The notes under the pieces are model-generated. The model was not told the DNA's origin and did no database searches. It worked only from the letters and a program-made list of their open reading frames with translations. Made by a program: the position numbers and the translations under genes. Shown here one piece after another: positions 18,502 to 20,605 of a stretch of 64,000 nt of DNA. This DNA comes from Alphaproteobacteria bacterium (lineage in GTDB: Bacteria > Pseudomonadota > Alphaproteobacteria > UBA9219), in assembly GCA_031291435.1 (NCBI GenBank), contig JARLJC010000108.1, positions 6,852-70,851 of the forward strand, given 5' to 3'. Position 1 is the first letter of the stretch, and each line of letters starts with the position of its first letter.

Positions 18502-19116
18502 GTGATCCACCCGGAACAGATAAGAGCGGCGCGCGCCATGCTGAGCCTTAGCCAGCGGCAACTGGCGAAAAAAGCCGGCGTTTCGGTGGCCACGCTCAAC
18601 AATATCGAACGTGGCGCGCAGACCGACCCCAAGATCAGCACGATTACCGCCATTCAGCAGGCGCTGGAATCGCGCGGCGTCGAATTTACCAATGCCTATG
18701 AAGGCGCCGGGGTGTTGCTCAAACCGATGCGCAACGGCGACGCCGGCGCCACCGTCCTGATCGTCGATGACAGCCGCGAGGACCGCCTGCTGTATAAAAA
18801 CTGGCTCGGCAAATCGGCGCATAAAAAATACCGCGTGGTCGAGGCCGACAATGCCCGCTCCGGATACGGCGCCTTCATCGAAAGCCATCCCGATTGCATC
18901 GTTCTCGATTTCAAGATGTATGGCAGCGACGGTTTCCAGATGCTCGCCGAAATGAAGAAAGATCATGTCCGTTTGCCGCCCATCGTGTTTGTCACCGGGC
19001 TGCATAACGACGTGCTGAAGGAAAGCGCGGAACGTCAGGGCGTCGCCGCCTATCTCGAGAAAAAGAACCTGACGAAAGAAAGGTTTCATGAGGCCATTGA
19101 GCGAGCGCTCGCCTGA
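18502..19116 (+). CDS. Response regulator with reversed architecture: HTH_XRE then REC (second copy)
   Basis: 204 aa with a GTG start. HTH: IRAARAMLSLSQRQLAKKAGVSVATLNNIERG. REC: LIVDDSRED, IVLDFKMYG, FVTG, LEKK. Confidence 0.85.
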   Translation: MIHPEQIRAARAMLSLSQRQLAKKAGVSVATLNNIERGAQTDPKISTITAIQQALESRGVEFTNAYEGAGVLLKPMRNGDAGATVLIVDDSREDRLLYKNWLGKSAHKKYRVVEADNARSGYGAFIESHPDCIVLDFKMYGSDGFQMLAEMKKDHVRLPPIVFVTGLHNDVLKESAERQGVAAYLEKKNLTKERFHEAIERALA

Positions 19117-20605
19117 ATCCAGCCGCGACCGGCTGCAGGCGATAGTCGACAACGCTTTGGATGGATTGATCACCATCGATAAGCGCGGCCTTATAGAAAC
19201 GTTCAACCCGGCATGCGGGCGTATTTTTGGCTATACCGCCGAAGAGGTGGTGGGGCAGAACGTCAAAATGCTGATGCCCGAGCCCTATCACAGCGAGCAT
19301 GACGGCTATCTGCATAATTACCAGACCACCGGCCAGCCCAAGATCATCGGCACGCCGGGACGCGAAGTTTCCGGGCGCCGCAAGGACGGCACGGTTTTTC
19401 CGCTCGATCTTTCCGTCAGCAGTTTCGAGCTTGAAGACGGCGCGCATTATTGCGGCATCATCCGTGATGTCAGCCTGCGCCAGCTATCGGCCCAGCATCT
19501 GAAGGACGAGAGCGAGCGCGTGCTGGCGATCATGAAAACGGTGCTCGACGGCGTCATCACCATCAGCGACCGCGGCCTGATCCAAAGCTTTAACCCGGCG
19601 GCGGTGCGTATTTTCGGGTATGAGCCGGAAGAAGTCATCGGTCAGAATGTCAAAATCCTGATGCCCGAACCCTACCATTCCGGGCACGACAATTATCTGC
19701 ATAATTATCTGACGACCGGCGAGAAAAAGGTCATCGGCATCGGCCGCGAAGTCAGCGCCAAGCGCAAGGACGGCTCGATTTTCCCGATGGAGCTCGGCGT
19801 CAACGAAATGAGCATTCAGGGCGAACGCATGTTCGTCGGCACCATTCGCGATATCACCGAACGCAAAAAAGCGGAACTCGAGATCAAGCGTTACCTCGCC
19901 TCGCTCAAGCGCAGCAATCAGGAACTCGACGATTTTGCTCATATCGCTTCGCATGATTTGAAAGAACCGCTACGCGGCCTCAGCAACAACGCCATGTTTC
20001 TAAAGGAAGATGTCGGCGACAGGCTCGACCAGGCCTGCGTCAAGCGCCTTGATCGCATGGTGTTCCTGTGTGAGCGGATGGAACGTCTCGTCAACGACCT
20101 GCTTTATTTCTCGCGTCTCGGGCGGCAGGAACTCGCGGTGCAGCGTACCGATCTCAACGAGGTCGTCAGGGATATCGAATCCATGATGGAAAATACGCTG
20201 CATGAAACACACACAACCATCGTTATCGACCTGGAATTGCCGGTCATTACCTGCGATTTGCCGCGTGTAACCGAGGCTTTCCGCAACCTGATCACCAACG
20301 CCATCAAATATAACGACAAGCCCGAGAAACGGATTGCCATCGGCTATGAATTTATCAATGGCGAACGCGCTTATTACGTGCGCGATAACGGCATCGGCAT
20401 CTCCGAACAATTTCATAGCGACGTGTTCCGCATCTTCAAGCGCCTGAACGACGAAGATGACAGCGTCAAGGGCACCGGCGTTGGCCTGACCTTCGTCAAG
20501 AAAATCGTCGAACGCCATGACGGCCGCATCTGGATCGACTCGAAAGTCGGCGAAGGCACCACTTTCTATTTCACCATCAACCAGCCCCGGGAGCATGATT
20601 TATGA
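19088..20605 (+). CDS. Histidine kinase with two tandem FixL-type heme-binding PAS domains
   Basis: 505 aa. PAS1 is [45 protein letters not shown]. PAS2 is [44 protein letters not shown]. Both match the FixL heme-pocket signature. H-box [11 protein letters not shown], then HATPase_c. Confidence 0.85.
   Translation: [505 protein letters not shown]

Follow-up and report, generated by a model that had tools for sequence, protein, structure and literature searches.

Haem-based sensing of O2 by PAS domains is understood almost wholly from FixL and DosP, each of which has one haem domain. In the FixL/DosP cluster of PAS domains, a histidine on helix F-alpha is the primary determinant of haem binding; a survey lists over 9,700 domains of this cluster that have the His, with enrichment in kinases and diguanylate cyclases, while about 40% of the cluster's sequences are without it and presumably sense other things (PMC10468136). 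Two further features are prominent in FixL: (i) Arg220 (Bradyrhizobium japonicum, Bj, numbering), which together with hydrophobic distal residues forms a signature for O2 discrimination, and (ii) Arg206 (Arg200 in Sinorhizobium meliloti, Rm), which touches a haem propionate and is part of FixL switching, such that its replacement by Ala weakens the inhibition of the kinase by O2 and R200 variants autoxidise (PMC10765370). The gene described here encodes a predicted sensor histidine kinase with two tandem FixL-type PAS domains (PAS1 and PAS2) and lies in a 64,000-nt stretch of an alphaproteobacterial contig (GenBank JARLJC010000108.1, positions 6,852 to 70,851), which was analysed whole and is termed the window. 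Judged by its sequence, the kinase is FixL-like at the sensor end and (bacterio)phytochrome-kinase-like at the output end, and belongs to neither family by their defining tests. It is read as a haem-based sensor of O2 or another gas that feeds a multi-kinase relay, with FixL-type input and phytochrome-type output, at a probability of roughly 0.6 for this reading as a whole.

Domain architecture and haem-pocket residues

The open reading frame (ORF) of the kinase has every appearance of a genuine, intact gene for a cytoplasmic sensor histidine kinase. Pfam places PAS domains at residues 15-128 and 154-258, HisKA at 280-345 and HATPase_c at 390-499, no membrane segment is predicted in the protein, and the order PAS1-PAS2-HisKA-HATPase_c is practically certain. 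The H-box reads HDLKEPLRG and includes His289, and the HATPase_c motif GTGVGL and one further motif are visible in the translation. An AlphaFold2 model built with 44 homologs as input (mean pLDDT 83.7) has two PAS folds joined by a helix (residues 129-151), and an unbroken helix (257-312) that leads from PAS2 into the DHp domain. By Foldseek, the PAS1-PAS2 pair of this model superposes on PAS-A/PAS-B of BjFixL (8js5) with a TM score of 0.78 at about 4 Å over some 255 columns. The best full-length relatives of the kinase are 66-69% identical, a look-up of the exact protein in public assemblies finds no entry, and a megablast search of the operon against the PLSDB plasmids gives no match.

Both PAS domains find FixL before any other structure when searched alone against all PDB sequences with phmmer. 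For PAS1 the best chains are 1dp6 of BjFixL (E 6.3e-29) and 1d06 of RmFixL (E 7.3e-29), and for PAS2 they are 1d06 (E 6.1e-38) and 1dp6 (E 6.6e-34); DosP is the next family for both domains, at E values of about 1e-13 to 1e-16. The original prediction, made from the DNA alone, had proposed a histidine kinase in which two FixL-type PAS domains stand in tandem, and at the sequence level the Pfam and phmmer results bear this out. The PAS1 and PAS2 peptides that it quoted are exact, and the S. meliloti and B. japonicum FixL sequences that it gave agree with 1d06 and 1dp6.

The key residues of the haem pocket were mapped from the phmmer alignments with 1dp6 and 1d06 and from a hidden Markov model (HMM) alignment, in Bj numbering. 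The proximal His of F-alpha (Bj His200, Rm His194) falls on His71 of PAS1 (codon 19298-19300) and His200 of PAS2 (codon 19685-19687); both had been named beforehand as candidate haem ligands, and counting along the translation confirms that both are His. The O2-contacting Arg220 corresponds to Arg92 in PAS1 and Arg220 in PAS2. Among the distal residues, Ile215 is represented by Ile86 and Val215, Leu236 by Leu108 and Leu236, and Ile238 by Val110 and Val238 (PAS1 and PAS2, respectively), while Bj His214 is replaced by Lys in both domains (Lys85 and Lys214). Thus, the proximal His, distal Arg and hydrophobic distal residues of a FixL/DosP-type haem-PAS domain are all present in PAS1 as well as in PAS2, and both domains probably bind haem.

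PAS2 is 50-58% identical to the FixL haem domains, with the upper value obtained against RmFixL; for comparison, BjFixL and RmFixL are 60% identical to each other. PAS1 and PAS2 share 56-59% of their amino acids. Their coding DNA is just 71% identical over 228 nt and, therefore, the duplication is not recent.

Transmitter class and the adjoining receiver

FixL-type transmitters carry an H-box of the AHELNQPL class, as in BjFixL, and the HDLKEPLRG box of the present kinase is not of this type. The best PDB matches of the kinase core (residues 256-498) are the bacteriophytochrome kinase modules 9ys3 and 8uph (E 3e-43); a chimera with the kinase part of FixL, 4gcz, follows well behind (E 5e-23). 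The bilin-binding PAS-GAF-PHY module of phytochromes is absent from the kinase, in which Pfam detects only PAS-family domains N-terminal of HisKA. Assignment as a FixL ortholog was tried with the NCBIfam model NF041777 (sens_FixL_Rhizob) and rejected, as the kinase reaches 303.4 bits where the cutoff is 850. The transmitter had been judged to be of a non-FixL type from its H-box, and the core comparison and the model score agree with that judgement.

The gene that follows encodes a single-domain receiver whose start codon overlaps the stop codon of the kinase (ATGA). Its best PDB match is RcpB (1k66, E 1.7e-37), followed by RcpA, Rcp1 and the response regulators of bacteriophytochromes. A phytochrome-type kinase core and an adjoining single Rcp-type receiver are, thus, found side by side, and the first phosphotransfer from the kinase probably goes to this receiver.

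A FixJ-type partner was searched for in two ways. A tblastn search of the window with FixJ, FixK and NarL C-terminal sequences returned one weak receiver-domain match only, a result that is supportive rather than rigorous; and Pfam finds no LuxR/GerE domain in the genes of the signalling cluster. The earlier statement that the window holds no FixJ-type regulator, thus, stands. Because the NCBIfam score lies below its cutoff, the core is of phytochrome type, the partner is of Rcp type and the window yields no FixJ or FixK, the kinase is, to judge by these comparisons, not a FixL ortholog and would not act through FixJ/FixK.

A large family with variable haem-PAS copy number

A word-indexed protein search with the kinase finds at least 7,988 proteins at E<=1e-20, of which the best 120 were scanned with a small HMM of the FixL haem-PAS domain. 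Two or more FixL-type PAS domains are present in 118 of these 120 homologs (two in 54, three in 43, four in 18, five in 2 and six in 1). An exhaustive search of 1.84 billion cluster representatives (50%-identity clusters) with the di-PAS fragment gives 12,863 clusters at E<=1e-30, with giant proteins as the top matches, in which as many as 13 copies stand in tandem, almost all with the His. The original prediction implied that the tandem arrangement is rare, which these numbers contradict; by sequence it characterises a large family, in which copy number runs from 1 to 13, and is not special to this locus.

The haem-pocket residues are under strong constraint in this family. Across the 323 domains of the 120 homologs, the His is kept in 292 and the Arg in 296 (about 90%). 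In the 44 homologs with two PAS domains, the PAS1 His and Arg are each found in 44/44, the PAS2 His in 43/44 and the PAS2 Arg in 42/44; the phospho-acceptor His289 is invariant (44/44), and conservation extends to the hydrophobic distal residues of both domains. Thus, the N-terminal domain is at least as constrained as the kinase-proximal PAS2. Most positions that are near-invariant in the family are also kept in PAS1.

The geometry is likewise regular. Successive haem-PAS domains have a His-to-His spacing of 128 residues in 133 of 203 repeats; the spacing is 129 in the present kinase because of an insertion in the FG loop of PAS1. The H-box His follows the last haem-PAS His by 89 residues in 59 cases, this kinase included, and by 96 residues in 20, values that lie one heptad apart. 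A fixed spacing with a heptad difference is as would be expected of signal transmission through a coiled coil.

Copy number varies among lineages. A search of species-representative genomes confirms 568 loci, and in the best 80 of these the kinase ORFs have one haem-PAS copy in 51 cases, two in 12, three in 2 and five in 1. Single-copy, membrane-anchored kinases are found in many Rhizobium species, and single copies occur in other genera as well. Kinases with two copies are found in Pseudoalteromonas, Xanthobacteraceae, Rhodospirillaceae and a metagenome-assembled genome (MAG) of Azospirillum; those of Opitutaceae have three copies and those of Planctomycetota three to five. No positional orthology of PAS1 and PAS2 is detectable across homologs (identities of 0.61, 0.62 and 0.61). 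Haem-PAS domains within one protein have a mean identity of 0.64 and a maximum of 0.91, and some lineages may accordingly have undergone repeated or recent duplication.

A search of the accessible literature on tandem or dual FixL-type haem-PAS kinases found no characterised member, and returned only the Aer2 precedent and a general PAS survey. The FXL proteins of Chlamydomonas are reported FixL-like haem binders.

Some relatives have further architectures. The giant proteins (P0121-P0161) are 1.7-5.5 thousand residues long, with up to 13 tandem FixL-type PAS domains at a period of about 125 residues, almost all with the proximal His, and are possibly from eukaryotic microbes. One of these (P0124, 3415 residues) has a multi-pass membrane region of about 1750 residues followed by 13 FixL-type PAS domains, and no kinase motif is seen in it. 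The closest relative in the genome collection (L052:7575-9125, from the alphaproteobacterial MAG SW_3; 75% identical in the best segment) combines ETR1_N, a membrane domain of the ethylene-receptor type (E 5e-37), with one FixL-type haem-PAS domain and the same kinase. The ETR1_N-fused form is also found in P0008, P0019 and P0098, and its domain content suggests that ethylene/copper and gas sensing may be combined in one protein.

The seven-gene signalling cluster and related loci

The kinase is the second of seven genes on the forward strand, in the order HTH_3-REC, two-haem-PAS kinase, REC, REC-PAS-HK, REC, HK core and REC-GGDEF (REC, receiver; HK, histidine kinase; Table 1). The genes overlap or nearly abut, with a gap of 114 nt only before REC-GGDEF. 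The original prediction was correct that no FixJ lies nearby, but missed the phytochrome/Rcp-type pair and the operon in which it stands, with its REC-GGDEF gene at the end. In the REC-GGDEF protein the GGDEF motif is intact and an RxxD I-site precedes it (RPYD-5 aa-GGDEF); an end-point in cyclic di-GMP (c-di-GMP) at this locus is about as likely as not. The PAS domain of the REC-PAS-HK hybrid was considered as a further haem domain and rejected, with a score of 37.8 bits in the haem-PAS HMM and no proximal His in a manual alignment.

Table 1. Features of the kinase gene and its signalling cluster, in window positions
Feature	Position	Strand	Basis or remark
Sigma-70-like promoter match, ATGACG-16-TATATT	18432-18459	+	Consensus only; 3 sites vs 3.3 expected, weak
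Response regulator, N-terminal HTH_3 (XRE-type) and C-terminal receiver, 204 aa	18502-19116	+	Pfam
Sensor histidine kinase, PAS1-PAS2-HisKA-HATPase_c, 505 aa	19088-20605	+	Translation, Pfam, PDB search
PAS1, residues 14-128, FixL-type haem-PAS	19127-19471	+	phmmer vs PDB
PAS2, residues 143-258, FixL-type haem-PAS, adjoins kinase part	19514-19861	+	phmmer vs PDB
HisKA/DHp, phospho-acceptor His289 (codon 19952-19954)	19925-20122	+	Pfam HisKA E 6.5e-9
HATPase_c catalytic domain	20255-20584	+	Pfam E 2.5e-23; N, G1 and G2 boxes present
Single-domain response regulator, 147 aa, Asp67, Rcp/bacteriophytochrome response regulator type	20602-21045	+	Pfam Response_reg E 5e-22
Hybrid kinase, REC-PAS-HisKA-HATPase_c	21053-22585	+	Pfam; TTG 21020 a possible alternative start
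Second single-domain receiver, 161 aa from ATG 22582	22582-23067	+	Pfam Response_reg E 1e-13; ORF could begin at 22465
Sensor-less kinase core, HisKA and HATPase_c, 238 aa	23064-23780	+	Pfam HATPase_c E 2e-23, HisKA E 1.3e-6
REC-GGDEF diguanylate cyclase, 334 aa	23895-24899	+	Pfam GGDEF E 3e-45, Response_reg E 7e-18

The HTH_3-REC gene at the head of the cluster (HTH_3 at residues 7-56, E 3e-13; Response_reg at 85-199, E 3e-17) overlaps the start of the kinase gene by 29 nt. The promoter-like site precedes this gene, within a 450-nt intergenic region that follows a divergent DegT gene; the upstream flank encodes glycosyltransferases and the DegT-type aminotransferase, as might be expected of a region for surface polysaccharides. 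In most response regulators the receiver comes first. The order here is unusual, with the XRE-type helix-turn-helix N-terminal and the receiver C-terminal, and recurs in a second HTH_3-REC gene of the window (14439-15134, - strand; 26% identical). The latter is divergently paired with a gene for a membrane histidine kinase (15147-16688, + strand) that has a 280-residue N-terminal region without Pfam match and an H-box of the same class as the two-PAS kinase (AAHDLKEPVR).

Related loci conserve part of the cluster. An Rcp-like receiver, 40-66% identical, comes directly after the kinase in almost every one of the 80 loci, and the trio of haem-PAS-HK, single REC and REC-HK recurs in Alpha- and Gammaproteobacteria, Opitutaceae and Planctomycetota. 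The hybrid of the REC-...-HK type follows the receiver in Opitutaceae, Pseudoalteromonas, Alteromonas, Rhizobium and the SW_3 MAG, and occupies the position of 21053-22585 in six loci (L002, L003, L007, L019, L022 and L052). A REC gene is found at the position of 22582-23067 in L003 (Pseudoalteromonas ardens) and L019 (an Alteromonas MAG). The fuller order of haem-PAS-HK, REC, REC-PAS-HK, REC or REC-HK and REC-GGDEF-EAL is found in L003, L019, L052 and the window, with the closing gene encoding REC-GGDEF-EAL in the three related loci and REC-GGDEF in the window. HTH_3-REC was rejected as a family-wide partner, since it is conserved only in L006, where a 58% identical homolog lies directly upstream of a two-haem-PAS kinase.

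Proposed signal path and competing explanations

In the proposed path, each PAS domain would hold one b-type haem via its proximal His (His71 or His200), with bound O2 stabilised by Arg92 or Arg220. By homology, the binding or release of O2, and possibly of NO or CO, at the ferrous haems would alter the PAS conformation. The structural model and the linker-length statistics suggest that this change could run along the helical linkers (129-151 and 257-312) and switch autophosphorylation of His289. On the analogy of Aer2 with its three PAS-haem domains (PMC10107281), PAS2 may be the primary transmitter and PAS1 the tuner. The phosphate would then pass to Asp67 of the adjacent Rcp-like receiver, as near-universal adjacency and homology to Cph1-Rcp1-type pairs suggest. 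The operon content would have the signal enter a relay of REC-PAS-HK, REC and HK core, with REC-GGDEF (c-di-GMP) and the HTH_3-REC transcription factor as likely end-points. Among the possible ligands, O2 is mildly favoured as the physiological one.

Several observations weigh against this path. (i) The switch arginine of FixL (Bj Arg206, Rm Arg200) is Asn77 in PAS1 and Asn206 in PAS2, and neither domain has a proximal-side, propionate-contacting arginine. Of the two FixL arginines, only Arg220 thus has equivalents here, and the Asn at the Arg206 position had gone unnoticed in the original prediction. Asn is also the majority residue at this position in the family (Asn 225, His 42, Ser 23 and Arg 4 in the 323 domains). 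Because Asn takes the place of Arg206 in both domains, the kinase may be coupled differently from FixL, or may even sense redox instead of O2. (ii) PAS1 is the more divergent domain, with only 43-46% identity to the FixL haem domains, and its one-residue FG-loop insertion (TPG, in IIGTPGRE) is rare (3/44 two-PAS homologs). (iii) The operon promoter shows neither an FNR/FixK box nor another O2-related cis element. (iv) A GGDEF end-point occurs in a minority of the related loci only, and an output to c-di-GMP would be locus-specific at best. (v) The cluster combines three kinases with five receiver domains, a wiring that is not deducible from sequence.

The divergence of PAS1 bears on an alternative in which only PAS2 senses, and PAS1 is a dimerisation or modulatory domain like PAS-A of FixL, with any haem dispensable and no second input. 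The superposition of the pair on PAS-A/PAS-B of BjFixL would suit such a role, as would the greater distance of PAS1 from FixL, its loop insertion and the fact that the same kinase occurs with a single haem-PAS domain in Rhizobium and other genera. In the tri-PAS-haem Aer2, moreover, signalling comes from the output-proximal PAS domain only, and PAS1 can largely be dispensed with (PMC10107281). This explanation is nonetheless rather unlikely, as His71 and Arg92 are found in all 44 two-PAS homologs, slightly better kept than their counterparts in PAS2, and PAS1 retains most near-invariant positions of the family, unlike the haem-free PAS-A of FixL (PMC8534201).

The replacement of Arg206 bears in turn on what is sensed. 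Instead of O2, the haem domains could report NO or CO or, with a redox behaviour like that of EcDosP, the Fe(II)/Fe(III) state; the ready autoxidation of FixL R200 variants would favour redox sensing (PMC10765370), and the transmitter and partners of the kinase are unlike those of FixL. Set against this are the Arg220 equivalents and the hydrophobic distal residues (Ile/Val215, Leu236 and Val238), which are kept in both domains and are the FixL signature of O2 discrimination (PMC10765370), and a non-O2 signal is accordingly viewed as rather improbable. That the domains are haem-free, with another small ligand or none and with inherited but non-functional FixL-like motifs, has a precedent in the roughly 40% of FixL/DosP-cluster sequences without the His (PMC10468136), but is very improbable for domains that both have the His, Arg and hydrophobic pocket, nearly invariant in the subfamily, and are up to 58% identical to solved haem-bound domains. 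A rhizobial FixL ortholog that drives fixK, nif and fix genes via FixJ is hardly tenable: some database sources do name homologs 'sensor kinase FixL' and the NCBIfam FixL model is the top match by E-value, but its cutoff is far from reached, the core and receiver are of phytochrome and Rcp type, and neither FixJ/FixK in the window nor a FixK box at the operon was found.

The preferred reading, a FixL-type haem input coupled to a phytochrome-type output, can be extended on the basis of the family survey. The haem-PAS array of fixed period (about 128 residues) might be one in which copy number (1 to 13) sets sensitivity, cooperativity or range; here, the four haems of a dimer would be cooperative, or would have two affinities or ligands, and would form a sharp O2 switch of a phytochrome-like cascade that controls c-di-GMP. 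The original prediction had likewise suggested that the pair might integrate two signals or sharpen the O2 response. These ideas are speculative, and the extension is viewed as rather improbable.

Other genes in the window

Outside the cluster, the window encodes HemN, the oxygen-independent coproporphyrinogen oxidase (32707-34050, - strand; TIGR00538, 416 bits vs a cutoff of 325), with an FNR/FixK-type box TTGAGCCAGATCAA (34086-34099) 36 nt upstream. A perfect FNR/FixK box TTGATCTAAATCAA (34925-34938) precedes a 2OG-Fe(II) oxygenase gene (34955-35626, + strand). TTGA-N6-TCAA sites number five in the window against 0.65 expected, and all lie away from the operon promoter. The boxes of HemN and the oxygenase and the excess of sites, therefore, indicate from sequence that the organism has a separate low-oxygen regulon of the FNR/FixK type.

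The best database relative of HemN is 65% identical, and its named relatives are alphaproteobacterial MAGs; because of this, and with the kinase relatives at 66-69%, the DNA would seem to come from an alphaproteobacterium of a poorly sampled group. The G+C content of the window is 53-65%. An efflux cluster (254-5003, - strand) comprises an outer-membrane factor (OEP), an MFS transporter, a membrane-fusion protein of the HlyD type and a TetR/AefR-type repressor. A gene at 41741-46900 (+ strand) encodes a probable secreted adhesin or exoprotein of 1719 residues, in which MBG repeats and a domain of two-partner secretion (TPS) are found. Long ORFs (448-975 residues) without Pfam match at E<=1e-4 are found at 5112-7427 (+), 25426-26772 (-), 27072-29999 (+), 30082-31716 (-) and 36402-40269, some of which may be wrong-strand shadow ORFs in GC-rich sequence.

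Comparison with known systems

The kinase shares with FixL (1dp6, 1d06 and 8js5) the PAS fold, the proximal His, the Arg220 equivalent and the hydrophobic distal residues, as well as the general plan of tandem PAS domains followed by a kinase, with a helical linker into DHp. FixL has one haem-PAS domain, the O2-sensing PAS-B, and a haem-free PAS-A (PMC8534201), whereas both domains are of the haem type by sequence in the present kinase. FixL also has Arg206, its own HisKA/H-box class and a FixJ partner; the corresponding elements here are Asn, a phytochrome-like transmitter and a single-domain receiver of the Rcp type.

Several haem-binding PAS domains in tandem are also found in Aer2 of Vibrio cholerae and V. 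vulnificus, which are dual or triple PAS-haem O2 sensors. In the model for V. vulnificus Aer2, the output-proximal PAS domain signals and the upstream domains modulate (PMC10107281). Aer2, however, represents a separate, independently evolved haem-PAS family with its His on E-eta and a distal (I-beta) Trp (PMC10468136). Neither feature is found in PAS1 or PAS2, in which the candidate haem-ligand His is on F-alpha as in FixL, and no Aer2 chain is among the PDB matches of either domain at E<=1e-3. The output of Aer2 is a chemoreceptor signalling domain, in contrast to the kinase found here.

At the output end, the closest systems are Cph1-Rcp1, CphA/B-RcpA/B and the bacteriophytochromes with their response regulators (BRR), which have a homologous kinase core and receiver and the same kinase-then-receiver gene order. 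The phytochromes use the bilin-binding PAS-GAF-PHY module for input, and two haem-type PAS domains take its place here. EcDosP and AxPDEA1 have haem-PAS domains of the same FixL/DosP cluster and link O2 sensing to c-di-GMP turnover, as the present locus probably does. DosP has its haem-PAS fused to GGDEF-EAL in one polypeptide, while the link at this locus, if real, would run via phosphotransfer to a separate REC-GGDEF protein.

The locus, thus, stands for a large family of wide phylogenetic spread, apparently uncharacterised, in which a tandem FixL haem domain without the switch arginine is combined with a phytochrome/Rcp-type transmitter. If both haems are functional, the family would offer a natural system for multi-haem effects in one protein, such as cooperativity, range extension or dual ligands, and its fixed module geometry would be of interest to sensor engineers. 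It also bears on how O2 may be linked to decisions between biofilm and motility outside the FixLJ-FixK and FNR circuits. Were the cooperative array real, it would constitute a previously undescribed pathway from O2 to biofilm that is independent of FixLJ and FNR.

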